Assembly: GCA_965197905.1 (NCBI GenBank)
Contig: CBDAOB010000004.1
Location: forward strand, 736,001 to 800,000
DNA: 64,000 nt
Source: Candidatus Latescibacterota bacterium
GTDB taxonomy: Bacteria; Latescibacterota; UBA2968; UBA8231
Direction of reading: 5' to 3'
Part shown: positions 16,450 through 32,089 of the stretch, piece after piece
Numbering within the stretch: the first letter of the stretch is position 1
Layout of the letters: each line of letters starts with the position of its first letter
The notes under the pieces: generated by a model
Told to the model about the DNA's origin: nothing
Seen by the model: the letters and a program-made list of their open reading frames with translations, nothing else
The model's database searches: none
Program-made: the position numbers and the translations under genes

Positions 16450-17691
16450 TCAGGGCACGGGTTTCGATCTGTTTTTGTAGATCTCTTCGTGACCGGGGGG
16501 AATGACCCCGCCGATCTTCAGCGCCTGTTTTCCGTTCTCGCCGGCGAAGGGACGCGCCAGAAATTTGGGTTCCTCTTCGACGAAAACTACGACGGGTCCC
16601 GTCTTTGGTGTGTCCGAACAGATGATATCGCCGGTCTTCAACGTTCGGGCTTCGCCCAGGGAGATCTGCGTCCGCCCCAGCTCGGCCGTAACCGGCATGA
16701 AGGTCTTGTTCAGACGCTGGTTGTTCTGTTGAATCAGGTCATCTTTATTCGTCTGTGAAATCCGGACATAACTTTGTTGTCCCAACCGCGGCAGGATCGA
16801 TTCGAGGGTAAAGAAGGGATAGCACAGGCTGACCAGGCCCGAGGCGTTTGTAGAGTTGACCTCGAAAGCCAGCAGGATGACGATCTCACTGGCCGCCGTG
16901 ATCTGCATGAACTCCGGGTTGGTCTCCAACTCGATGTCGGTGACCTCTACCCGCAGAATCGGCTCCCAGGTCGCTTCCAGATCTTCGATGACCCGCTTGG
17001 TGATGCGATGAATCACACCAACCTCGATCGGGGTCAGGGTTCGCGGTTCCACGCCTTTGTGGGAGCCCTTACCGCCGAAAATCCTGTCGACGAAAGCGAA
17101 GGTTACCGGCATGGCAAAATCGATGATCGCCTGCCCATTGGTGGGACCCAATGTAAACTGGTAGGAACAGGACGGATTCGACAGTGACATGATGAATTCG
17201 GCATAGGTAGTCTGGTCCACGAACGCCGTTTCCACATCCACCACGGCACGCATGGCGCCGGAAAAGGTGGAGCTCAGCAGTCGGGCGAAGTTGTCGTGCA
17301 GGTTTTCCAGGGTGCGCAGCTGATCCTTGTTCACCCTCGCCGGGTGTTTAAAGTCGTAGCTGGTGACTATTCGTTTTTGAGGTCGTCCGCGGTTCTCCTT
17401 CTTCTGTTGCATCTCCATGTATTGAGCCAAAGCCTCTCCCATCGCCAGGCGCAGCTCCTCCCGCGCCTTTTTCGATATTCTCTTGCCCTTGAGCAGGGTG
17501 TCCAGCTCCTTCAGCGCTGCCGCCTCCAACGCCTCTCCCCGTTCATTGACCGCCAAACCTGCCAGTCTCTGCAGAAAACCCGAAATTTGGCTCTCGTCCA
17601 GCTTTTGCTTCTTGAGACGGCCGTAGAAACCGTCCGACTCCTTGGATAAGAGCAGCGCATCGATTTCATCCTGAGAGAGTATGTCAGCCAT
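16450..17691 (-). CDS. fliM: Flagellar motor switch protein FliM (copy 1)
   Basis: MADILSQDEIDALL CheY-binding peptide, YDFKHPARVNKDQLRTLENLHDNFAR, GGKG, LTPIE, ETNPEF, C-terminal SpoA domain. Confidence 0.92.
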   Translation of the reverse strand: MADILSQDEIDALLLSKESDGFYGRLKKQKLDESQISGFLQRLAGLAVNERGEALEAAALKELDTLLKGKRISKKAREELRLAMGEALAQYMEMQQKKENRGRPQKRIVTSYDFKHPARVNKDQLRTLENLHDNFARLLSSTFSGAMRAVVDVETAFVDQTTYAEFIMSLSNPSCSYQFTLGPTNGQAIIDFAMPVTFAFVDRIFGGKGSHKGVEPRTLTPIEVGVIHRITKRVIEDLEATWEPILRVEVTDIELETNPEFMQITAASEIVILLAFEVNSTNASGLVSLCYPFFTLESILPRLGQQSYVRISQTNKDDLIQQNNQRLNKTFMPVTAELGRTQISLGEARTLKTGDIICSDTPKTGPVVVFVEEEPKFLARPFAGENGKQALKIGGVIPPGHEEIYKNRSKPVP

Positions 17692-17709
17692 GTCAGTCTC
17701 CTACAAATC

Positions 17710-19023
17710 TTAGACGTAATCGTCTCCGGTGTCGCCGCGAACTATCCTAACCTTCCCCTGCTCTTCGAGCTGCCTCACTGTTTGCACGATCCGCAGCTGC
17801 ACCTCCTCCACATCACGGCGCAGCATCCGTTCCAGCCCCTCCATGCCTTCTCGAACCGAGGTGCAAGCCCGCTCCGACATGTTGCTGAAAAATCGTTCTC
17901 GCAGTTCCTCGCCGGCCTGTTTTAGTGCGATGGTAAGATCTTTCTCATCTGTTTCGCGTAACAGAGTCTGGATTTCGGTATCCGTCATCTTGCCGATCTC
18001 GGCGAAAGTAAACATCTGATTGCGCACTGATTCGGCCACCTCCGGATCCTGCGCATCCATCTGGTTGAGAACGGTCCGCTCCACGCTTGAGCCCGTCAAA
18101 TTCAGCACGTCGGCCAGCACCTTGGGTCCGCCTACGTCCTGATCCCGACCGAGCAAGTCTCGAAGAGAAGCTTCCAAAGCTTCTTCGAGGTTCGCGATCA
18201 CCTTTTGAGGGACGTTCTCGGTAGTCGCCATTCGATATGACACGTCTGCCTGTAAACGTTCGGGCAATTGTGCCAGTACCCCTGCTGACCTGCGTGGTTC
18301 AAGCTGCGAGAGAATGAGCGCGATCGTCTGCGGGTGCTCGTTAGATAAGAAGGGAGCGATCTGATCCGCCTCCACTCTGTTGAGCATGCTGAACCCGGAT
18401 TCGGTAGAATCTATATTCCTGTCAACAAAGTGATTCGCCCGGTGTGGTCCCACCACCTTGGTCAGCAGCCCGCGGGCATACGCCGGGCCGCCGATCTCCA
18501 CGTAGTCACCAGCCACGATGCGCCGGTGCGCTGTCTCCAACGCGTGCATAGCGAGCTGATGCCCAACCTCGGGCATCTCCGCAATAGCTCGCGCGACGAG
18601 CTGAGTTTCCTCGCCCAGATGTCGGCAGACCTGGGCACCAATTTCCTCGCCCAGACCGATCAATATGGCCGCTACCAACTGTTGAGCAGTCAGATCAGAG
18701 AGCGGTCCCTCGTCCCGGCTTGCCTCTTCTCTTCGGATGATAGTTCGGACCACGGCTGCTGTTTCTTTAGCGTGGTGAAAGAGGTAGGCATGGGTGCTGT
18801 CAGCGGCGATTCCAGACGGTAGGAGAGGCGCCGAGGAGGTGTCGGGAGGTTTTGCCACAGCCTCCACGGTCTGGGGGCGCGGTTTTGGCACGTGCAGGGG
18901 TGGCATCGCGTCGACGGCAGCCTCGTCTGGGCATGTCCAGCTTGCAACCGTTTGTTTCTCTTTAAACTCGGTCGAGCCGCCCACGATGCGGGCCCCTGTA
19001 GTTTTTTGAGGCGCGGCGCTCAT
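17710..19023 (-). CDS. fliG: FliG-like motor switch protein (copy 1) with N-terminal extension
   Basis: [56 protein letters not shown]. Confidence 0.88.
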   Translation of the reverse strand: MSAAPQKTTGARIVGGSTEFKEKQTVASWTCPDEAAVDAMPPLHVPKPRPQTVEAVAKPPDTSSAPLLPSGIAADSTHAYLFHHAKETAAVVRTIIRREEASRDEGPLSDLTAQQLVAAILIGLGEEIGAQVCRHLGEETQLVARAIAEMPEVGHQLAMHALETAHRRIVAGDYVEIGGPAYARGLLTKVVGPHRANHFVDRNIDSTESGFSMLNRVEADQIAPFLSNEHPQTIALILSQLEPRRSAGVLAQLPERLQADVSYRMATTENVPQKVIANLEEALEASLRDLLGRDQDVGGPKVLADVLNLTGSSVERTVLNQMDAQDPEVAESVRNQMFTFAEIGKMTDTEIQTLLRETDEKDLTIALKQAGEELRERFFSNMSERACTSVREGMEGLERMLRRDVEEVQLRIVQTVRQLEEQGKVRIVRGDTGDDYV

Positions 19024-19695: not shown

Positions 19696-21201
19696 CTAGG
19701 TAGATGGAGCTTCCCTAAGGTCAAGACCGAACCTGTAGGCGTAGAGCACCGCTGGCCCATCCGCCTCAAAATGCAGTCGCACTTCCTGACCCACGAAACG
19801 TGCCAGATCGCTGCGCTCCTGCCCCCAGGTGATTTCGAAGTCGGTTTGGTCGTCGCGCTCCAGGCCGTTGCAGTTGTCCAGCTCGAACCCTTCCGGAACC
19901 TCGGTATCGCATACCACCCGAACTCGGATGCGGCCGTTGTTACTCGGCTTCTTTGTGCCGAAAACGCTGGCATTCAGAAATAACCTTGCGCCGTCGACCC
20001 GCACGGGTTCAGTCATCAACTCGCCGGCGCCACCCGTGCACATCCCCACGAATCCATCCTTGCGCAACGTCGCCAGACCGATGGCCGCCTGGAACTTTTG
20101 ATCGCTGCCGTGACGACGCATGCCCGAATACCAGATGTGCAGCACGTTGTCCTTGAGGATGGGCGGATTCAGCGATGACGAGACCCAGCCATGGTCCCAG
20201 GCGCCCGGGGTCCCGATGGGCAGGAACTGTTCGTGTTTCCCGACTCGATGCCACTTCGTGAGGTCGCGCGCCGTAGCCAGCTCAGTTGCACCTTGGCCCG
20301 TCGAGGTGTAGAAGAGCGCCAGAAATCCCAGGTATTGATTGCCATAGGCAAACGGCGTCATCAGCTCGAACTGGTCGCGTGTCTCGTCGAAGTCATCCGG
20401 TTTGAGAACCGTCTCCATCGGAGTCCAGTTGACGAAGTCCTCGCTGGTACTCAAGGCGACCACCTTGCGGTACTGCTTCCACTGCAGAATGAAATGATCG
20501 GCAATCGTCCCAGCGCGCCGCGACACGGCTATGAACCGACGTGTGCCCGGATCGAAAACGACCGCGCCGCCATCGCCGGCTCTCGCAATAGACGGTTGGT
20601 CGTCCAGGGTCCAGCGGATTCCATCGTTGGAGTGGGCAGTGTACATGCCATGGCGCTCGAGCACGGACTCAAAATACCTTCGCCGGTCTTCCGGACTCGC
20701 TGATTTTCCGGCACGAGGCAGCTCTGCCTGGCGCTCCTGGTAGTACCCCATCTTGTAACGGCGCGTTGCGTCTTCTTCGCGGTCATCCTTGATGATGCCC
20801 CACGGGTGCAGCGAGCCGTGCTCCGGACGAGTTTCCGGCGTGGGGTAAACGATGTTGTTCGCCGTAGATCCCTGAAACGGGAACACGCCCAGCTCGGGCT
20901 TGTCCCACTTCACGCCGTCGGTTGAGCTGGCGTAACAGATATACTTCTGGGCTTCGTTGCCGGCGCCGGCGGGACCGTGGGTGAAGTACCACATTTTGAG
21001 GAGGTCTTCGTCGCCGTCGTAGAGGACCGATCCCCACATCTGCACCGCGCTGCCTTCCCAGGGACGGTCGGCACGCAGCACCGGCTCGGTCTGGGCGCGA
21101 GCAGGTTGTTGCACCTTGCGCACGAAACCGGGATGATCCTGAACCTCGGCGTCATCTACGAATAGGTGCAGACCAGGATCGTGGAGATCACTGACGATCA
21201 T
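19696..21201 (-). CDS. Beta-propeller glycoside-hydrolase-like protein (GH32/43/130-like fold)
   Basis: HLFVDD, PVLRADRPWEG, CYASSTDGVKWDKPELG, repeated SxDxxxW motifs, IGLATLRKDGF. Confidence 0.6.
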   Translation of the reverse strand: MIVSDLHDPGLHLFVDDAEVQDHPGFVRKVQQPARAQTEPVLRADRPWEGSAVQMWGSVLYDGDEDLLKMWYFTHGPAGAGNEAQKYICYASSTDGVKWDKPELGVFPFQGSTANNIVYPTPETRPEHGSLHPWGIIKDDREEDATRRYKMGYYQERQAELPRAGKSASPEDRRRYFESVLERHGMYTAHSNDGIRWTLDDQPSIARAGDGGAVVFDPGTRRFIAVSRRAGTIADHFILQWKQYRKVVALSTSEDFVNWTPMETVLKPDDFDETRDQFELMTPFAYGNQYLGFLALFYTSTGQGATELATARDLTKWHRVGKHEQFLPIGTPGAWDHGWVSSSLNPPILKDNVLHIWYSGMRRHGSDQKFQAAIGLATLRKDGFVGMCTGGAGELMTEPVRVDGARLFLNASVFGTKKPSNNGRIRVRVVCDTEVPEGFELDNCNGLERDDQTDFEITWGQERSDLARFVGQEVRLHFEADGPAVLYAYRFGLDLREAPST

Positions 21202-23122: not shown

Positions 23123-23438
23123 GGTTTAGATACTCATTCGACCCGACCCTGCCGTCAAACGGCCGGAGGAGGGCTGAACAGACTCTTTCAGCCCTTCGAG
23201 TAGATTGGAAGCGGCAGGAAGGCTGGTTGGGTTTGCGTTTGAGCAGGCAAGCCGTCTGCTGAAAACTGCGCAGGCGCTGAATCTTGAGCGCCCAGAATCG
23301 ATCGATTTCTCATCCCACCGTTGTTGTCTACGGGGAAAAAAGCGCCAGCTCAGAGAGAATTGAGTCAGGTACGCGTCTTGCTGTAACTCTTCGAGCCACC
23401 AATCAAGGTGCCACCATCAATTCGTAAGAGGTATCGCC

Positions 23439-23801
23439 ATGAAAAACCTTTTGCAGATCGTCTGCGCAATTTTCGCCACCGCTCTGTTTGTTTTCGGATC
23501 CGGATGTTCGTCGTCCAGTACATCCTCTGAACCTGGCAGGGTAGGAAAGCTGGGAGTACAGCGCGACAGAGAAAGCAATGAAACCGAGGAAGAGATCGCC
23601 ATTGAAGCATTGCCGGCCGTAGTGGTCGATGCCGTAAACGGTGCCGTCGAAGGCGGCGTTATCGTTGAAGCCGAGAGGGAAACCGAAGACGGCCAGGTGA
23701 TTTACGAAGTGGAGGTTGACGTGGATGGCGTTGAGTGGGAAGTGGAAGTCGATGAGGATGGCAACGTGCTCGAGGTTGAAAGTGAGGACGATGAGGAGTG
23801 A
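23439..23801 (+). CDS. Putative lipoprotein with PepSY-like domain and acidic tail
   Basis: Signal peptide ending GSGC; LPAVVVDAV..EAERETEDGQVIYEVEV..EVEVDEDGNVL. Confidence 0.72.
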   Translation: MKNLLQIVCAIFATALFVFGSGCSSSSTSSEPGRVGKLGVQRDRESNETEEEIAIEALPAVVVDAVNGAVEGGVIVEAERETEDGQVIYEVEVDVDGVEWEVEVDEDGNVLEVESEDDEE

Positions 23802-23844
23802 GGACGATGAGGATGAGGATGAGGATGAGGATGATGACGATTGA
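23781..23844 (+). repeat. 16-bp tandem duplication AGTGAGGACGATGAGG x2 followed by a (GAGGAT)n run
   Basis: Read directly: copies at 23781-23796 and 23797-23812. Confidence 0.85.
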
Positions 23845-24011
23845 GCCGTAGAACCACAAGAGGCGACGATGGCGCGCGAACCTAAGAGCGCCGTCGCCGC
23901 CTCTTGCTGCATGTCCTTTGCTTAGCTCCGACCCGCGTCTTCCAAGCTCTCGCAGACAACAGTCCCTTATCGCCTGACGTCCAGGAGGGATCGCAGAAAT
24001 GCGGGTGAGTT

Positions 24012-27000
24012 CTACCGGCGTTGCGCATTCTTGATTTTTTCCAACAGCCTCTGAATCGACGCCATGTCGAAAGATTCCGCATGTTCCTGCATCGTCGTCG
24101 CCAGCTGGTTGGCACCCGGTCCTATCTCCCCTAGCTCGGCCAGCGCCTGCCGCAACTCGGTTATGTTGGCCACCGCGGCGGACTGGGTTAGACGAGTGAC
24201 TAATTCTGCAGGCAGCGAAACGCGACTTGGATCGATCGGCGCTTCCACCTTAAGCGCCGGTTCTGCCGCATCCCTATCGGAGTAAACGAATTCCACCCCC
24301 AGCAGATCTGCCAGACAACTGTAGATCTGTTCGACGCGTACCGGTTTGCCGACAAACTCGTCGAACCCCGACGACAGATAGTGCTGACGTTCGTGTTCCA
24401 ACGTCGAAGCGGAGACAGCCACCGCTTTGATCGCTGTCGTCGCTGGATCTGTCTTCAACCGTTCAACCGCCTCGTTGCCATCCATTTCCGGCATGCGAAT
24501 ATCCATGAAGACGATATCCACCGTCTCTTCACGCGCCGCCTCCACCGCTTCGCGACCGTTGACGGCTTGCACGACGTGAACGCCGATCGCTTCCAAGAAT
24601 TGCGCCAGGATGTCGCGATTCTCCTTGACGTCATCCGCCACAAGGGCGCGCACGGAGTGAGCCGGATCCAGTCCAACGATACGACTCCAGTCGCGCTCCA
24701 CTTTTGGTGGCAACACGCTCTGCGACCGGGATAATTTGATGCTGAACGAGAAGGTGGTTCCTTTTCCGACCGCGGACTCCAGCTCGAGGGTACCCCCCAT
24801 CAACTCCACCAATCGCTTCGACACCGCGAGTCCGAGCCCGGTGCCGCCGCGCTCGTACCCCGCGCTGCCCTGCTGAAAAGGCTGGAACAGCTCCTGTTGC
24901 TCATCGGCACCGATACCTTGCCCCGTGTCCGTCACCACGAACCGATAGTTGTCGGGACCCGCAGGGGTGACGTTCAAAGAAACGGAACCTTTCTGGGTAA
25001 ACTTCACCGCATTGCCCAGCATGTTTATGAGCACCTGCATGAGTTTGCTTTCGTCGCCTCGAACCGAGACGCGGCCCGGGCTCGGCAACTCGAGGCGCCA
25101 TTCGAGACCCGCTTCGCGACAGCGAAGATCAAACATTACCGCTAGGCTCTGGAGCAGCTGGTCCAGGTCGAAATCCGACTCCTGAATCACCATTCGGCCC
25201 GCTTCGATCTTCGAGATGTCCAGGACCTCATTGATCAGCTTGAGCAGATGATCGCCGCTGGTCTGGATCGTTCCCACCGCCTGCCTGTGTTTGTCGGTCA
25301 GATCCGGGCTGTTCTGCATGATCTGCGCGTAGCCGATGATCGCGTTCATTGGCGTGCGAATTTCGTGGCTGATATTAGCCAGGAATTGCGACTTGGCCTG
25401 GTTGGCCAACTCGGCCGCATCCTTGGCTTCGCGGAGTTCGGAAATCAATTGGTTCTGAGCTTCGGTGGCCTCCTGAAAATCGCTGTAGCGGGCGTAGGCC
25501 AAGTCTACGACTTCGGCGAAGTCTTGGACGCGCCCAATCTCGCCCCCGGTAAATGCGGTTCCCTGACCGCTCCATCCCCGTTGCAATACCAGCGCGCCAC
25601 GGCTGTAAGGCACGTTGACTCCCCAGATCCTGGCTTTGGTATTGAGGGTGTCATCGGGTTCTAGGGTCGCCCAGCTCGATTTTTCCTGCTCCGTCATCTC
25701 CCCATGCCAAGTCTGTGCGGAACGCCATTGTTCGATGTAGTTGTGACTGAATTCGGTTTTTGCTTCGTTTGAAAGAACCTGGAGTCCGGTCTCCTCGTCC
25801 TCGGGGCGAACAACCTGTATGGTACCAGTCGCTTCGTTCAGAACGCAGACGTAAAGCAGATCGAATCTAACCCCCATTTGACGCAATTCGTCTCCTACCT
25901 GGACGATCACCTTTTGAAGATCATCCGACCTCTTCATGGCGAGAATAGTACTGCGGACCCGCTCGAGGGCTTGCTCCGCGGAGAAGCTGCGCAACAGATC
26001 TGCCATGTCGGTGTCGTCTTTGTCGACGCTCTCGAGGATGTTACGCGTGACCGGCGTGCTGCTTATGTTGAGAATGTCGGCTACAACCTTCGGGCCACCC
26101 ACGTCCTGGTCGCCAACCAGGATATCCCTCAACGACTGTTCCAGGGCTTCTTCTATCTGGTTGATGGCGTTGGGGGTGACGCTATCCATGGTCGCCATTC
26201 GATAGGCGACATCTGCCTGCAGAGGCTCGGGAAATTGGGCCAGAAGGCCGGCAGCCTGGTCCGCACCTAGCTGCGAGGCAATTAGCGCTATGGTCTGCGG
26301 GTGCTCATTGGCCAGAAACGGCGCCAGTTGATCTGGTTCCACGTTCTTGAGCATGTAGAATCCAGCCGTCACCCTGCTGGAGACGCGGGCTAGGATCTCT
26401 TTGGCTCGGGGCGCTCCAACGGCACGGGTAACTGCGGCGCGGGCAAAGTCCATTCCTCCGGTGCTCAACCACGTTCCTGCAAGCAGATGCTGCCTGAACT
26501 CTTCCAGCACGTCGTCGCGAAGCGCTTTCGGAGTGCCCTGCAAACGGGCAATCGCCTGGGTGGTCTCCTCTATCTCGAAATCGGAGAGATGTTGCATTAT
26601 CATGCCGGACACCTCTTGGCCGACAGCGACCATCACGATGGCCGCTTTTTGAATCGCCTCTAGCCCGCTCTCTTCGGTGGATTCATCGTCAACAAGCATC
26701 GTGCTCACCAGGTTGGCCGCCTCAGCCGGACGGTTACGCATGAATTCGTAGACAGAGGTAGATTCGTCAACGTGAAACGGAGCTGAGTCCTCTGTGCGAG
26801 TCGTACCTGTTTCGAGCCGTCCCTGCTCCGTGACGGAGGGCGCGATCTCCTGCTCGGGTTGATCGTCTCGTACTGGAGAAGCTTCAGCCGCGCCTGGCGC
26901 CCTTTCCTCCTGAAGGAGGGAGAAGGCCTGTTCCCAATTCGTCGAGGACGGGTACGCTGGCACGGGTGCCATCGAACCTACCTCGCTGTGGGAGGGGGGT

Positions 27001-27083
27001 CTCCACTCCTCAACGGAAACCAGATGTAACTTGCTGCTCCTCAATCCTAGAATGCGACCCGCGGATTTCTCTGATGCAGACAT
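24012..27083 (-). CDS. FliG(N+M)-GAF-like-HisKA-HATPase-REC fusion hybrid histidine kinase
   Basis: [44 protein letters not shown]; then [71 protein letters not shown] before ATG 27083; one uninterrupted ORF. Confidence 0.9.
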
Positions 27084-27104
27084 CTGTTCCTCCTGCCTCG
27101 TCAC

Positions 27105-27461
27105 CTATGATTCCTCACGAAGCGATTCTGACCCAATGGAATCGAGTCGCAGATCGTATGCCTGTTCCTTGCGAACGTGGAAGCGGACCAGCCTGCAAGC
27201 AATGCGATCTCCAAGCACGACGATCTCGCTTTCGGCAAACGGATGGTTGTTGGCCAGAACGGCGAACGCTTCCCCGGCTTGTTTATCCAGAACGATGACG
27301 TCGTCTGGACCCAAATCGGAAACCTCGCTCAGCGGCATGCGTTTGCGACCCATTTCGACCACCAGCTGCATACGTACGCTTCCCAGATGTTGCAGGTTTT
27401 CCGCTTCACGCCGCAGCAGGTCTGTCGCCTCGTTCGGGTTGAGTGATAAGCTTTCGTTCAT
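27105..27461 (-). CDS. fliN: FliN/SpoA-domain protein (type b, copy 2)
   Basis: VEMGRKRMPLSEV..DVIVLDKQAGEAFAVLANNHPFAESEIVV. Confidence 0.78.
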   Translation of the reverse strand: MNESLSLNPNEATDLLRREAENLQHLGSVRMQLVVEMGRKRMPLSEVSDLGPDDVIVLDKQAGEAFAVLANNHPFAESEIVVLGDRIACRLVRFHVRKEQAYDLRLDSIGSESLREES

Positions 27462-27760
27462 TTTTCGTCCGCTCCGGAATCCAGAATCTCCGTCACTCGC
27501 ACACCGAAGCTCTCACCGACAGTCACCACGTCCCCTTTGGCGAACTGCTTGCCGTTCAGGCGAATGTCGATCGACTCTCCCACCAACCGGTCCAACTCGA
27601 TAATCGAATGTTCGTCCATTTCCAAAAGCCGGTCCAAGGTCTCCTCGGTGCGCCCCAATTCCATGCAGACCGTCACCATGACGTCCGGAATTTCGGCGGG
27701 TTTGTGCGTTGCATCGGTCTTGATTGCTTTCGTGGTCGCTTCCTGCTTCGTCCCGGGCAT
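27458..27760 (-). CDS. fliN: FliN/SpoA-domain protein (type a, copy 2)
   Basis: MELGRT..SIIELDRLVGESIDIRLNGKQFAKGDVVTVGESFGVRVTEI. Confidence 0.85.
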   Translation of the reverse strand: MPGTKQEATTKAIKTDATHKPAEIPDVMVTVCMELGRTEETLDRLLEMDEHSIIELDRLVGESIDIRLNGKQFAKGDVVTVGESFGVRVTEILDSGADEK

Positions 27761-27781
27761 GTCTGTTAGCTCCTGTCTGTT

Positions 27782-28786
27782 CTATTGGCCTTCCAATGGA
27801 TAGTCTGCCTTCAACTCTTGCGGTACCTTTCCCACGACCTGCAGCTTGATTTCTCCAGCCTCGTTCGCAAACGGACGGGCGTAGAGCTTGGGCTCGCCGC
27901 CGACAAACACGATGCAGGGGTCGGTCTTGTGACCTCGCATGCAGACCACGTCGCCCACCCGCATTCCGTCGACGTCTTCCAGGGCCAGGTCAGTGCGTCC
28001 CATCTCCACTACCAGCGGCATCTTCGCGGGGCCGAGCACCGAGCGGTTGCGCCGAGTCGTTGCCTCCCGATTCAAACGGGGGCCACGTACATAGTGTTGT
28101 TCGCCTAAAAGGGGTAGAATGGGCTCCAATGTGAAGAAAGGATAGCACATCTTGACCAATTGCTTGCTGATATGCGCTGAATTCACCTCAAATGCGATAA
28201 GGATTACGATTTCGCTGGGAGCGGTGATTTGGAGGAACTCAGGGTTGGTCTCCAGCTCGATGTCGGTGATCTTAACCTTTTGAATCGGCGCCCACGTTGC
28301 CTCGAGATCCCCGATGACGCGCTTGGCCGAACGGTGCGTGACGCCGACCTCGATCGGTGTCATCGTCCGGCCTTCGACTCCTTCCGATGAGCCCTTCCCC
28401 CCAAAAGTCCGGTCTACCAGCGCGAACACGAGCGGCAAAGGGAAATCGAGGATTGCCAGTCCGCGAGTGGGGCCCAGCGCGAACTGGTAGGAACAGGAAG
28501 GATTGCTCAAGGACATGATGAACTCTGCGTAGGTAGTCTGATCGACAAAAGCGGTATCGACGTCGACCACGCCCCGCATAGCCCCGGAGAGCGTGGAGCT
28601 GAGCAGTCGGGCCAGATTGTCGTGCAGGTTCTCAAGGGTCCGCAGCTGTGATCTGCTTACCCTTGCGGGGTGTTTGAAATCGTAGTCGGTCGCCGGCTTG
28701 CGCTCCCCTTCCTCCTTTATCGATGGTGCTTCGTGATTGTTGCTTTTCGCGTCCTCCCGCTGTGCCTTAGCGCTCTCTGACATCAT
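27782..28786 (-). CDS. fliM: FliM (copy 2) lacking the N-terminal CheY-binding peptide
   Basis: YDFKHPARVSRSQLRTLENLHDNLARLLSSTLSG..VDQTTYAEFIMSLSNPSC..ETNPEF; SpoA tail; GGAGGT RBS; no LSQxEIDALL. Confidence 0.88.
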   Translation of the reverse strand: MMSESAKAQREDAKSNNHEAPSIKEEGERKPATDYDFKHPARVSRSQLRTLENLHDNLARLLSSTLSGAMRGVVDVDTAFVDQTTYAEFIMSLSNPSCSYQFALGPTRGLAILDFPLPLVFALVDRTFGGKGSSEGVEGRTMTPIEVGVTHRSAKRVIGDLEATWAPIQKVKITDIELETNPEFLQITAPSEIVILIAFEVNSAHISKQLVKMCYPFFTLEPILPLLGEQHYVRGPRLNREATTRRNRSVLGPAKMPLVVEMGRTDLALEDVDGMRVGDVVCMRGHKTDPCIVFVGGEPKLYARPFANEAGEIKLQVVGKVPQELKADYPLEGQ

Positions 28787-28818
28787 CGATACCTCCGCTG
28801 CAAGGTGGAACATTCGTC

Positions 28819-30324
28819 TCATCCTGGATGCTGCGCGGCTCCGTCCGCATCTGGTGCCTCGCCCTGGACCGACCGCAACACGCGATAAAGCCGGTTCCGG
28901 CTCGTGCCCAGTAGCTCCGCCGCCTTCGTCAGGTTCCCATCACAATGAGCCATCGCTTTTTCTAGAACCTTCGATTCAGCCTGCAGTGCAGCCGCATCGA
29001 GATCCAGCGGCAGCTCGTCTTCAGTGCTGATCCTAGTTTCCGTGTCCGCCGCCCCACCTTTCGGCGCCACTGGAAAATTCAAATGATGCACCTCGATTCC
29101 CTTGCCGCGACTCTCTATCACTGCCCGTTCGACGACGTTCTTCAGCTCCCGCACGTTGCCGGGAAAATCGTAGGTCTCCAGGCGGCCGACCGCCTCCGCG
29201 CTCAGGTCCGGCAGGTCGCATCCCATCTCCTCGGCGAACAGCCGTGCAAAGTGATTCGCCAACAGGCCGATGTCATCCCGGCGCTTGCGAAGCGGCGGCG
29301 TCTCAACGGTGTAGCGTGCCAGACGGTAGTAGAGATCCCGCCGAAACGAGCCTTCCTGAATCCAATTCTGAAAATCGACGTTGGTCGCTGCGAGAATGCG
29401 CACATCGACGTGCCGGCTTGCGGTCGCGCCCACCGGCCACACCTCCCCATCTTCGAGCACGCGCAGCAGCTTGGTCTGCAGTGCCGGCGGCATGTCCCCA
29501 ATCTCGTCGAGGAAAAGGGTGCCGCCGTGTGCCATCTCGAAATAGCCGATGCGATCCTCGCTGGCGCCCGTAAATGCGCCGCGCCGATGGCCGAACAGTA
29601 CCGACTCTACCAGGTCTGTGGGGATTGCGCCGCAGTTCACCGGGACAAACGGTCCGTCCCGGCGCTCGCTGCCATAGTGGATCGCCCGCGCGATCAGCTC
29701 TTTGCCGGTGCCGCTTTCGCCGGTGATCAGCACCGAGGTGGTGGGGTTCTCCTGCATGAGCTCGACCTCGGCAAAAATCTTGCGCATTGTCGAGCTGTCC
29801 CCGATAAGACCTTCCAGCCCCCAGCGTTCCTCTTCGCGGCGGGAAATCATCGAGAGTTGCCCGCGCAGAGATTTGCGCATGCTGATCTCACTCTCGAGCT
29901 CCCGATTCTTCTCTTCAAGGGCCAGATGCAACCGCCGGAGTTGGATGTGCGCCGTTACCCGTGCCAGCACCTCTTCTTCCCGGAAAGGTTTGACCACGTA
30001 GTCCACGCCACCGGCCTGGAAGCCGGCGATGACGGCCTCTTTCTCGTCCCGGCCGGTGAGGAATATGACCGGGATAGCTGCGGTCTCCGGTTCAGCTTTC
30101 AGGCGTCTGCAAACCTCGAAGCCATCCATTTCGGGCATGACGACATCGAGCAGAACAAGGTCCGGATTGGCCTGCTTGGCGATCTTTAGAGCCGCAGCTC
30201 CCTCGGTCGCGACCATTACCTTGTGTCCTCTTGCTTCGAGGACCTGCAGAAGCAGTTTGAGATTTGTCGGGTTGTCATCGACGGTCAGGACTCGAAAAGT
30301 TGTGTTGACTTGATCTGCGGTCAT
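28819..30324 (-). CDS. Sigma54-dependent response regulator (REC-AAA+-Fis HTH; NtrC/AtoC family)
   Basis: VDD..DVVMP; GESGTGKELIARAIH, ESVLFGHRRGAFTGA, LFLDEIG, FRRDLYYRL, PGNVRELKN, AAELLGTSRNRLYR. Confidence 0.95.
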   Translation of the reverse strand: MTADQVNTTFRVLTVDDNPTNLKLLLQVLEARGHKVMVATEGAAALKIAKQANPDLVLLDVVMPEMDGFEVCRRLKAEPETAAIPVIFLTGRDEKEAVIAGFQAGGVDYVVKPFREEEVLARVTAHIQLRRLHLALEEKNRELESEISMRKSLRGQLSMISRREEERWGLEGLIGDSSTMRKIFAEVELMQENPTTSVLITGESGTGKELIARAIHYGSERRDGPFVPVNCGAIPTDLVESVLFGHRRGAFTGASEDRIGYFEMAHGGTLFLDEIGDMPPALQTKLLRVLEDGEVWPVGATASRHVDVRILAATNVDFQNWIQEGSFRRDLYYRLARYTVETPPLRKRRDDIGLLANHFARLFAEEMGCDLPDLSAEAVGRLETYDFPGNVRELKNVVERAVIESRGKGIEVHHLNFPVAPKGGAADTETRISTEDELPLDLDAAALQAESKVLEKAMAHCDGNLTKAAELLGTSRNRLYRVLRSVQGEAPDADGAAQHPG

Positions 30325-30350
30325 TGCCAGTTGGCTTCCACATGATGGAT

Positions 30351-30367
30351 GGCAAAGGACATGCCAA
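30351..30367 (-). promoter_or_regulatory. Sigma54 -24/-12 promoter of the bEBP-fliM-fliN-fliN-fliG::kinase operon
   Basis: Minus strand TTGGCATGTCCTTTGCC = GG-N10-GC, 27 nt upstream of the bEBP ATG. Confidence 0.8.
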
Positions 30368-30457
30368 ACCTGAACGAGCCACTGCTAGAGTGGTATAACT
30401 TATTGTAAATTATCGTTTAAACTTGATTTCATAGCGATGGGATCAACGGGCAAGGTG

Positions 30458-30610
30458 CGTACCGAAATCGGTACGTACGCCACGCATTCGGAGCACCGCT
30501 ACGCTAGGAAATCGGTACGAGGAACCAGGCGAACCCTGTTTGGAACGCACACAGTGTACGGAAGACTCGGGCAGATTCCTACTTCGCATTTCTGCTAGGT
30601 TTTCGGTACA
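30458..30610 (-). promoter_or_regulatory. Putative bEBP enhancer sites (18-mers at 30458, 30502, 30593)
   Basis: Palindrome CGTACCGA-AA-TCGGTACG; minus-strand CGTACCGATTTCCTAGCG and TGTACCGAAAACCTAGCA; IHF-like TAACTTATTGTAA at 30396-30408 lies between them and the promoter. Confidence 0.65.
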
Positions 30611-30736
30611 GAGTCTGATTCAGGTCGGCAGCGAATTGAAGCGTGGACACCCTCAACAAGGATGACAGGTTTTGACAGAGACTACTGAGGTTTGGAAGAG
30701 ACACCCCCGGGAGCGGGCGCCTTCAGGTCTAGCCAA

Positions 30737-30890
30737 TCATCTATACAATGGATTGGTATGATCGAAACGGCAACCGGCATTCCACACCGAGCACTGGTTT
30801 CCGTGCGCCAGAATACCCCCCGGTCCTGGTGTAGCAGGTTCCAGGTCATGAACGTGGGATTGCGATTGTGAAATCGTTTCAGCCGCCGGA
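30737..30890 (-). pseudogene. Possible degraded remnant of a small uncharacterised gene
   Basis: Minus-strand frame SHVHDLEPATPGPGGILAHGNQCSVWNAGCRFDHTNPLYR* has no start codon; from memory it resembles the C-terminus of a hypothetical protein family ending WDAGxRFDxxNPxYR. Confidence 0.3.
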
Positions 30891-30934
30891 ACGTGGGTCG
30901 AGGTAGGAAGACCCCGGTCCCGGCCAACCCCTTC

Positions 30935-32089
30935 TCACGTTGGAACAGGCGGGCTGGCAGACTCCCAGCTAGTGATGAAATCCTCGACGCTGAAATTCTC
31001 CGGCATCTCGTAGAAGTAATATTTCATCGCCTGGTTTTGAAACAGCGACTCATACTGCTCGGTGTCCGCCGTTAGTTCCTCCTCCAGCGCTCCGAACCGA
31101 TCCCAGAGCTGGTCCAGTTCCGCGGCGGTAAGGCGCGCACCGAGGTCCTTGACGGCCTTGGTGACTTGCCAGTCGTCGGAATCCGAATCCTTGTACTTGC
31201 GGACCATGGCGGCGATTTTCGACAGCACGATCAGTGAGGTCATGCGCGCGTGCTCACTTGGATGCAACGTCTCGAACGCCTTTACAAACGCTCCCCGGTC
31301 TCGCTCTATCATGGCGCTGAACGTCGCCGCGATCTCGTCCAGGTGTTGCGCATGCAGCTGATCGAACTGTTTGCACTTGGCCGCACACTCGGAAGAAAGG
31401 TGCCCTACGAAATCGACGCCGATGGGATCGGGAATCGTGTGACCGAACCCCTTGTTGCCGACCGCATGATATCCCCCGTGAAACGTGCGCCGTTTGATCT
31501 CACCGTTCGGGGCAGCGCTGTGCAGAAAACAGTTGATGTAGATCACCCCATCGCCGGCCTTGAGATCGACCGGCATGGCGCCTGGCAGCGGCACGACCCC
31601 CATGCGGCGCTCGATTTTTCTTTCCTCGGCGTTGTTTCGCCTTTGATGGCTCCCTGGAATGATATGAAGAAAGCTGTCGTCGTAGAGCGCGATGTGCCAT
31701 TGCAGATAAGGGGGACCGTTCAGTCGAATGTCCTCCTGCAGGCCATCGAGTGGCGCCATATCGATGGGATGAATGTCCCGGTGCCATCCCGTGCCCGAAG
31801 CGATCAGCACCCACATTCCTGAGGGAATCACCTCCGGGACATTCATCAATTCACGGCTGAATCCGAGGGTGCGCTCGTCGAAAAGGAATTCAACCGCGTC
31901 CGCGGTCTCCGGTTCAACCCACTCGGTGGTGATCACTCGACTCTCTACCCCGGCATCGGTTGCCCGCTGAACGATGCGATCGACACTGTTGCGCAACCGT
32001 TGCAGTTCCTCTGGCGGAATCATGTCGCGAACAATGACATACCCCAGCTCCATGAGCTGCTCTCGCTGCGCTTCGATGGTTGCTGTCAT
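30935..32089 (-). CDS. Phytanoyl-CoA dioxygenase (PhyH)-family Fe(II)/2OG dioxygenase
   Basis: GYVIVRDMI, GWHRD, IIPGSHQR, LKAGDGVI..FLH, RRTFH. Confidence 0.85.
   Translation of the reverse strand: MTATIEAQREQLMELGYVIVRDMIPPEELQRLRNSVDRIVQRATDAGVESRVITTEWVEPETADAVEFLFDERTLGFSRELMNVPEVIPSGMWVLIASGTGWHRDIHPIDMAPLDGLQEDIRLNGPPYLQWHIALYDDSFLHIIPGSHQRRNNAEERKIERRMGVVPLPGAMPVDLKAGDGVIYINCFLHSAAPNGEIKRRTFHGGYHAVGNKGFGHTIPDPIGVDFVGHLSSECAAKCKQFDQLHAQHLDEIAATFSAMIERDRGAFVKAFETLHPSEHARMTSLIVLSKIAAMVRKYKDSDSDDWQVTKAVKDLGARLTAAELDQLWDRFGALEEELTADTEQYESLFQNQAMKYYFYEMPENFSVEDFITSWESASPPVPT

Follow-up and report, generated by a model that had tools for sequence, protein, structure and literature searches.

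A FliG protein with a hybrid histidine kinase in place of its torque domain, encoded beside its own FliM and FliN in a Latescibacterota bacterium

The switch complex of the bacterial flagellum is a textbook cooperative array with, to our knowledge, no known output other than rotation direction and torque. In FliG rings, ARM_C stacks on the ARM_M domain of a neighbouring subunit; the EHPQ motif of FliG binds FliM, and the torque helix contacting the stators sits after the MFXF hinge. According to a review, this hinge normally relays and amplifies the switching motion passed from FliM to FliG towards the torque domain. In a review citing Lynch et al. 2017, FliF's C-terminal tail and FliG_N are described as a co-folded domain that joins the membrane-supramembrane (MS) and cytoplasmic (C) rings, and this joint as setting their matching stoichiometry. 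Here we describe a gene at positions 24012..27083 (minus strand) of a 64,000-nucleotide stretch, called the window below, of the genome of a Candidatus Latescibacterota bacterium (assembly GCA_965197905.1, contig CBDAOB010000004.1, positions 736,001 to 800,000). It encodes a FliG whose torque domain has given way to a complete and conserved hybrid histidine kinase, and in front of FliG_N the protein carries a segment resembling the end of FliF.

The closest described signalling systems are flagellar two-component systems. The account in PMC3760246 has Campylobacter FlgS needing, and co-precipitating with, FliF and FliG and signalling to the bacterial enhancer-binding protein (bEBP) FlgR; similar two-component links are reported in PMC7064773 for other polar flagellates. 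Like FlgS/FlgR of Campylobacter and FlrBC/FleSR of Vibrio and Pseudomonas, the locus described here combines a cytoplasmic kinase, tied to FliG, with a receiver-sigma-54 activator. The tie to FliG is covalent in the fusion, whereas FlgS-type kinases are separate proteins without a FliG domain. FlgS, FlrB and FleS belong to the core flagellar hierarchy, while the fusion is part of a rare accessory cassette with its own FliM and FliN, and in half of its genomes it is paired with a response regulator (RR) carrying a PP2C phosphatase domain.

Compared with FliG itself (8umd_B, 3hjl_A, 4fhr_B, 5tdy_B and 5wuj_B), the fusion shares FliG_N, ARM_M with EHPQ, the GG linker and ARM_C, and has FliM and FliN as neighbours. 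It differs in lacking the C-alpha1-6 torque domain, being a kinase from the MFXF position on; in carrying a copy of the FliF tail and a further N-terminal motif; and in lying in an accessory operon of its own, not beside fliF. The FliF tail and FliG_N are also found in one chain, so that their split, co-folded domain becomes whole, in FliF-FliG fusions, both those made in the laboratory in Salmonella and Vibrio (8z4d) and the natural proteins P0124 and P0125, but these contain the whole ring-forming membrane protein FliF, whereas the FliG-kinase has only the last 36 or so FliF residues and no membrane anchor. With the hybrid kinases ShkA (6qrj), GacS (7z8n) and RetS (6dk7), by fold, and with Reg_prop/Y_Y_Y kinases, by sequence, the protein has its kinase cassette in common; their N-terminal sensor regions, which in several are periplasmic propellers, are replaced here by a cytoplasmic FliF tail and FliG N, M and ARM_C. 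The component families are known; their combination, and the proposed capping by a FliF tail, are new. An earlier note on this DNA, made by a reader of the sequence alone, had stated that no FliG-kinase fusion was known to be described, and a literature search with most subscription journals outside its coverage likewise returned no paper on a FliG-kinase fusion or on a FliF-tail-FliG protein.

The open reading frame (ORF) of the fusion is uninterrupted over 24012..27104 on the minus strand, as the earlier note had claimed, and encodes 1030 amino acids (aa) from a GTG at 27104. The ATG at 27083 gives a protein of 1023 aa and fits the N-termini across the family alignment; the in-frame GTG would add 7 aa. 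Pfam domain positions are quoted in GTG numbering, model helices and family alignment in ATG numbering. The Pfam matches, all well above the curated cut-offs, follow in the order FliG_N (148-244, E 6.4e-29), FliG_M (257-327, E 1.4e-29), HisKA (570-636, E 2.9e-23), HATPase_c (683-792, E 4.1e-29) and Response_reg (821-929, E 2.3e-21), and the FliG_C torque domain (PF01706) has no Pfam match anywhere in the protein. FliG_N, the ARM domain that binds the FliF tail (26373..26663; PF14842), aligns to the solved 5wuj_B and 5tdy_B, and FliG_M/ARM_M (26124..26336; PF14841), with EHPQ at nt 26295-26306, aligns to 4fhr_B and 3soh_B. The GG linker (GGPK) and ARM_C follow at 25998..26123, a segment that can be aligned with the canonical paralogs as far as their MFXF position. 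All the elements that had been read from the letters, namely the FliG N and M motifs, SHEIRTP, the N, G1, F and G2 boxes and an intact receiver, were located as quoted.

The point at which FliG ends was established by an alignment of the FliG part to the nine FliG-type genes that the genome encodes. This part is 51-55% identical to the six canonical paralogs, through FliG_N, the EHPQT of ARM_M, GGPK and ARM_C, and departs from them exactly at their NLMFVF; the paralog at 17710-19023 of the window has NQMFTF, its MFXF hinge, at this position. The junction, LLRSFSAEQ, occupies nt 25971-25997, so that the switch placed earlier at about 25990, at the MFTF hinge of that paralog, proved accurate. 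With the torque helix gone, the fusion would not be expected to generate torque with the MotA/B stators. A full-length AlphaFold model (alignment of 30 sequences, mean predicted local distance difference test score (pLDDT) 79.6, predicted template modelling score (pTM) 0.43) has helices at 111-131 (pLDDT about 86), followed by FliG_N at 143-235, ARM_M at 240-318, a GG linker at 318-327 that is disordered (pLDDT below 50) and ARM_C at 331-356. An unbroken helix, 358-381, is predicted to cross the junction (pLDDT of the block about 84-93) and is followed by a second helix, 386-402, an alpha/beta domain at 409-512 and a very long helix, 523-590, that contains the H-box; the second helix of the dimerization and histidine phosphotransfer (DHp) domain, the catalytic and ATP-binding (CA) domain, the receiver and a terminal bundle, 959-1022, complete the model.

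Directly before FliG_N, hhalign and BLASTP detect a segment like FliF's C-terminal tail (aa 100-136; 26676..26786, minus strand). FliF ends in ...MVRERPEDAAKLVRTMLMEE, and the fusion family has RPEDAAxLxRT immediately before FliG_N. When the fusion family was compared with 25 FliF sequences by hhalign, aa 100-136 corresponded to the last 36 FliF residues with a probability of 94.6% (E 6.7e-8), and BLASTP of the single fusion protein against FliF gave 10 identical residues in 20 (E 0.002). In the core block, at least 8 of 20 positions are identical to the FliF consensus in 17 of the 30 family members, and two members reach 18 of 20. By profile comparison, the stretch of 36 residues in front of FliG_N is thus a homologue of the FliF C-terminal tail that binds FliG. 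Since this homologue directly precedes FliG_N, it is probable that the groove with which FliG_N would dock to the MS ring is occupied in cis, or else by a subunit next to it, and a FliG_N carrying its own FliF tail should therefore fold with its groove filled without FliF. The segment suggests that the fusion is not hung from the MS ring in the canonical way.

A complex prediction for the FliF-like tail and the FliG_N of the same protein gave weak support, with a score of 0.40, which may reflect memory of the solved FliF-FliG_N structures (5tdy and 5wuj); the best of three controls scored 0.00, the runs agreed in at least 72% of contacts and the pLDDT of the partner was at least 56. Of 157 solved complexes, 116 reach the mark used for such scores, as do 2 of 215 mismatched pairs; with scores of 0.60 or less, only 18 of the 157 do so, along with both of the passing mismatches. 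Further upstream, at aa 9-45 or thereabouts (26949..27059, minus strand), the family alignment contains a conserved motif, RILGLR...V..W.PP...E...P...YP, which is kept in most full-length family members and has a similar counterpart in two other N-extended FliG paralogs. The N-terminal 150 aa of the fusion have no Pfam match.

The join between FliG and kinase is bridged by contigs of two studies in the Logan collection. One contig (X1, record 1) matches the window over 24012-28822 with 0 differences, and its origin may be the source sample itself. Two others, X3 (record 7, 24074-28822) and X4 (record 8, 24012-27274), stem from one sample of the other study and have the same three single-nucleotide polymorphisms (SNPs) each and no indels; the join, for which a check had been proposed, is thereby shown not to be an assembly chimera. 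A word-indexed search of 5.8 billion proteins, of which the best 120 clusters were listed, contained at least 31 clusters with FliG_N, FliG_M and HisKA, at 40-100% identity. In an alignment of 30 members (39-58% identity), E260, P262 and Q263 of EHPQ, G329, G330 and the H-box H573 are invariant, and the N, G1 and G2 boxes and the DD, D and K of the receiver are nearly so; conserved residues in the FliG and the kinase parts imply purifying selection on both halves. An assembly artefact or decaying gene is largely excluded for the fusion. Public annotation calls family members just 'response regulator' or 'flagellar motor switch protein FliG', and the family is currently invisible for this reason.

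The fusion family is real and conserved but rare. Among the matches listed, those that span the junction come from 4 of the phylum's 168 species genomes: the source genome (G000), G094, G150 and G105. These represent four genera of one family, in which FliF was found in 33 of 76 genomes, so that the fusion is present in 4 of the 33 FliF-positive genomes. A search of genome contigs for related loci returned one kinase locus, which is unrelated. Two metagenome loci that aligned over the linker and GAF segment (27-30% identity) were also rejected, as they encode PIN and aminotransferase proteins and no FliG, and a search of the ESM Atlas gave a best score of 0.82, below the useful range. In the complete genome G098, of the same genus as the source, a frame of 169 aa with 69% identity is a truncated canonical FliG in another syntenic locus and not a remnant of the fusion.

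The fusion is the last of five genes, in the order bEBP, FliM, FliN, FliN and FliG-kinase, whose stop and start codons overlap or abut. All are on the minus strand. The bEBP (28819..30324), identified by Pfam as receiver-AAA+(sigma-54)-helix-turn-helix (HTH), has a stop codon that overlaps the start of FliM and is intact in translation, with receiver Asp, Walker A, GAFTGA and HTH. The FliM paralog (27782..28822, 346 aa; Pfam FliM E 3.1e-47) has the GGXG motif (FGGKG); it is without the N-terminal CheY-binding peptide that the FliM of the main flagellar cluster possesses. The first FliN (27458..27760, 100 aa; FliMN_C E 7.6e-19) overlaps the second by 4 nt, and the stop of the second (27105..27461, 118 aa; E 1.5e-17) abuts the fusion gene. 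A scan of 23300-31000 for sigma-70 promoters and terminators gave no more than chance.

A dedicated FliM and two FliN precede the fusion in all three loci with upstream sequence (G000, G105 and G094), and a response regulator adjoins it in all four, a bEBP in G000 and G105 and an RR-SpoIIE (RR-PP2C) in G094 and G150. In G105, the order is bEBP, FliM, FliN, FliN::FGE-sulfatase and fusion, and in G094, it is FliM, FliN, FliN::FGE-sulfatase, the fusion (split in two frames) and RR::SpoIIE; the G150 contig breaks off just upstream of the fusion, which is followed by RR::SpoIIE. The FliN::FGE-sulfatase (SUMF1-like) fusions are located at L052:11713-12792 (G105) and L053:7155-8531 (G094), and a further protein, P0055, is a FliG with FGE-sulfatase and SpoIIE domains. 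The operon's flanks have 92% identical counterparts in G098, where 818 bp separate them, compared with 7757 bp in the window, from which it follows that the five genes come and go as one unit. Together with a small convergent PepSY gene, they form a cassette that is present or absent relative to G098; its borders have no flanking repeats and no shift in GC content. The PepSY gene (23439-23801, plus strand), within the segment missing from G098 and convergent to the fusion, encodes a small secreted protein with an acidic, DE-rich tail.

The kinase half begins with the junction, the connecting helices and a GAF-fold domain (25524..25997). The GAF-like segment that had been noticed in the letters is borne out as a GAF fold by structure, although no Pfam family matches aa 335-575 at E<=5 (PF01590, PF13185 and PF13492 unmatched). 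Folded alone, this middle module reaches a pLDDT of 85.5; VIA-align superimposes 141 residues on the GAF domain of PDE2A (1mc0_A) with a Z-score of 12.1 and 2.9 Å, dozens of GAF entries score Z 8-12, and the best Foldseek match has an E of 1.5e-4 (6oap_B). It is followed by the signalling helix (helix 523-590) and DHp/HisKA domain (25197..25523), with the phospho-accepting His in SHEIRTP (nt 25350-25370), by HATPase_c with its N, G1, F and G2 boxes (24729..25058) and by the receiver (24318..24644), in which DD, the phospho-acceptor D in FMDIRMP, S/T and K are all there. The C-terminal four-helix bundle (24018..24209) has no Pfam match, no sequence match in the PDB and no conserved His in the family consensus; as for a histidine phosphotransfer (HPt) protein, the bundle was the candidate considered, and no search was made for a separate one. 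With the whole fusion, Foldseek finds ShkA as the best match, and the kinase core also resembles GacS and RetS. ShkA is a hybrid kinase controlled by cyclic di-GMP.

This cassette is common to other kinases. A profile of the fusion family was searched against 1.84 billion representatives, and the best 150 matches include 6 that run from FliG into the kinase. In the remaining 144, the match starts only at about profile position 344, mostly with the C-terminal end of much longer proteins, and the matched part is the helix-GAF-DHp-CA-receiver-bundle cassette or the kinase part of it. Several FliG-less cassette proteins bear periplasmic Reg_prop/Y_Y_Y sensor domains (P0048 and P0039, for example), and over the core the cassette is up to 77% identical between the fusion and Reg_prop/Y_Y_Y kinases of the same phylum. 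Since the same cassette follows a different sensor region in other kinases, FliG occupies the input, or sensor, position in the fusion. Specific kinship to the main flagellar cluster's own GAF kinase was rejected, identity to the kinase half being a generic 24% only.

We favour, with confidence evenly balanced, the interpretation that the fusion is the kinase subunit of a self-contained module derived from the switch complex, in which assembly or conformation of FliG, FliM and FliN gates the kinase. This interpretation is the most economical one because the parts that form rings and bind FliM are kept while the torque domain is replaced at the hinge, and because FliG stands in the sensor position, a rigid helix is predicted and FliM and FliN are inherited along with the fusion. 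Association with the dedicated FliM and FliN would set the orientation of the helix, GAF domain and signalling helix, and this orientation would in turn set autophosphorylation of the H-box His, the state of the C-ring parts being the kinase input. The phosphoryl group would then go either straight to the response regulator encoded next to the fusion or first to the fusion's own receiver as a buffer, and the regulator, a sigma-54 activator here and an RR-PP2C phosphatase in other genomes, would alter transcription. A groove filled in cis would make assembly independent of the MS ring. We infer FliM/FliN binding, cis capping, the state of the complex as signal, the phosphotransfer partner and the regulon. 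The earlier proposal that the motor switch is rewired as a signalling device stands in so far as the torque domain is swapped for a conserved hybrid kinase that starts at the hinge; the built-in FliF tail argues against the usual docking to the MS ring, and a separate switch-derived complex may be what is rewired. In a bolder version, possible but doubtful, self-capped FliG-kinase, FliM and two FliN would form a free-standing, cooperative allosteric array independent of the MS ring, whose conformation would be read as histidine phosphorylation and then as transcription, in place of a direction of rotation.

Several observations weigh against a self-contained module. FliF and FlhA are present in all four fusion-bearing genomes, so independence of the flagellum is not supported, and a FliF tail in cis would also be compatible with lateral entry into the flagellar C ring through ARM_M/ARM_C stacking. 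Capping in cis is deduced from homology and a weak complex score, and in the two other N-extended FliG proteins (of clusters A and C1, described below) homology to the FliF tail is not significant (E 0.55 and 0.63) in a single-sequence hhalign test in which a canonical FliG control was likewise not significant. The CheY-binding peptide is missing from the operon FliM of G000 and G105 but kept in that of G094, and the input is therefore not uniform. The synteny is based on only 3-4 genomes of one family, the receiver and a bundle without conserved His leave the route of phosphotransfer ambiguous, and, with a GAF domain between FliG and kinase, the actual signal could be a small ligand bound there.

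An assembly checkpoint like that of FlgS, FlrB and FleS would account for some of these observations: the fusion would enter the nascent C ring, the ring would activate the kinase and the bEBP would activate later sigma-54-dependent flagellar genes. FlgS (PMC3760246) and its analogues in polar flagellates (PMC7064773) provide the precedent, and FlhF/FlhG-type genes, which lie in the main flagellar cluster, a single-copy rpoN, an intact operon bEBP and the presence of FliF and FlhA wherever the fusion occurs all fit. In a scan for sigma-54-type sites, a flagellin gene (L009 6623) had one with one mismatch 130 nt upstream, and fliOP had another just upstream. Such sites are barely enriched, however, with 172 in the genome at one mismatch or fewer, or 27 per Mb against 19 in one shuffle; the only perfect site of the flagellar cluster lies inside motA, none with up to one mismatch lies upstream of the fusion operon, and the 23 or so bEBPs encoded in the genome compete as candidates. 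Presence in just 4 of 33 FliF-positive family genomes is unlike a member of a core hierarchy, as is clean absence of the cassette from the complete G098, which has FlhA. The partner is an RR-PP2C and not a bEBP in two of four genomes, the fusion brings its own FliM and two FliN, its FliF tail speaks against canonical MS-ring docking, and the kinase half is just generically similar to the flagellar-cluster GAF kinase. We regard a checkpoint of this type as unlikely.

A similarly low probability is given to a ligand-sensing GAF hybrid kinase for which FliG is a mere tether or scaffold, placing the kinase at the base of the flagellum or on a platform of FliM and FliN; the signal would be a small molecule in the GAF domain and not the state of the switch proteins. 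The middle module clearly has a GAF fold, the best whole-protein Foldseek match is ShkA, and the cassette occurs unchanged in many FliG-less kinases and so can work without FliG. In these parent kinases, however, the GAF domain is placed between the N-terminal sensor region and DHp, suggesting a transmitter and not the primary sensor; there is no Pfam GAF match against which a known ligand-binding signature could be checked; and a tether would not need ARM_C, a rigid helix over the old hinge or a dedicated FliM and two FliN within one cassette. It appears very improbable that the gene is a product of misassembly, a pseudogene in decay or a decoy FliG that lacks both torque domain and signalling role. 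The gene is rare and patchy, its homologue in G094 is split in two frames and FlhA of the source genome is also in two frames, so indel errors or decay do occur; against this, contigs of two studies bridge the join with three SNPs and no indels between strains, the frame is open over 1023 codons, at least 31 clusters among the matches listed have the same architecture, and catalytic residues of kinase and receiver are conserved at 39-58% identity.

What sets the protein apart is that the output domain is swapped for a kinase exactly at the hinge for the switch signal, with the MS-ring docking site apparently satisfied internally. If the interpretation favoured here is correct, two-component signalling can take its sensory input from a module of rotor and switch proteins, and the five genes would be a compact natural system in which to follow transmission of conformation between FliM and FliG, with phosphorylation as an easier read-out than rotation. 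The fusion would also be a covalent counterpart for asking how kinases of the FlgS type sense FliF and FliG. A free-standing array, if it exists, would be the first case of flagellar rotor and switch proteins exapted into a non-motor signalling machine, and part of a broader radiation, as yet unexplored, that C-ring paralogs and fusions have undergone in the phylum. The surplus of FliG and FliM genes over a single FliF (described below), the torque-less FliGs and the FliN::FGE, FliG-FliM-FliN and FliG-SpoIIE fusions suggest that the phylum uses C-ring parts far beyond a single motor.

The source genome has one FliF, one FlhA and one main flagellar cluster (L018/L019), in which FliE, FliF, FliH and FliI are consecutive and fliH directly follows fliF, with no fliG between them. 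For this single FliF there are nine FliG-type and five FliM genes. The FliG types are six canonical proteins, one N-extended full-length protein, the fusion and one torque-less protein, and relatives are similarly expanded, with 4-8 FliM matches each. The canonical FliGs, of 342-377 aa, are found amid unrelated genes (L009:9701-10738, L010:9777-10808, L011:9606-10667, L012:9668-10705, L013:9504-10637 and L014:9913-10941).

The N-extended protein is encoded in the window itself, 5 kb from the fusion operon, where cluster A (16450-19023, minus strand) consists of a FliG (437 aa) and a FliM (413 aa) without FliN. This FliG is full-length, with an N-terminal extension of about 100 aa that resembles that of the fusion, and the FliM has a CheY-binding peptide followed by an insertion of about 60 aa; the pair is kept in G098, which has no fusion operon. 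An ORF of 501 aa without a Pfam family (19696-21201, minus strand) lies between the two C-ring clusters. The torque-less protein is encoded on contig C1 (L015 8822-11065) in the order FliN, FliG, FliM; this FliG, of 327 aa, ends at the MFXF hinge and has neither torque domain nor kinase. The trio is about 1 kb from a gene for a large serine recombinase. In the cluster A and C1 FliG proteins, YLFHH..ETAAVVRT resembles the FliF tail by eye only, by way of divergent family members.

FlhA of the source genome (C5:2476664-2478614; L018 10572-12780) is in two adjacent frames, of 498 and 268 aa, and is a single frame of about 705 aa in four relatives; the split is a frameshift or an assembly indel and, if real, would break the export gate. 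In G098 (C1:2038369-2038905), the FliF query matches only over residues 312-490 (96% identical), with one TAA inside and a weak, partial Pfam FliF match, and FlhA is intact; FliF may be disrupted there. The FliF matches of G150, G151 and G153, which belong to one genus, contain one in-frame TGA each (L077, L082 and L084). After fliA in the main flagellar cluster (L018 4953-6446, minus strand), a GAF-HisKA frame of 346 aa and a separate HATPase_c frame of 142 aa are divided by a stop and may together represent one flagellum-associated kinase that is split or frameshifted; a sigma-54-like site with one mismatch is situated at the gap. Fusions among metagenomic proteins include single chains of FliG, FliM and FliN (P0033, P0035 and P0121-P0123, of 801-942 aa) and of full-length FliF and FliG (P0124 and P0125, of 862-865 aa), and some of these proteins are labelled Gemmatimonadota.

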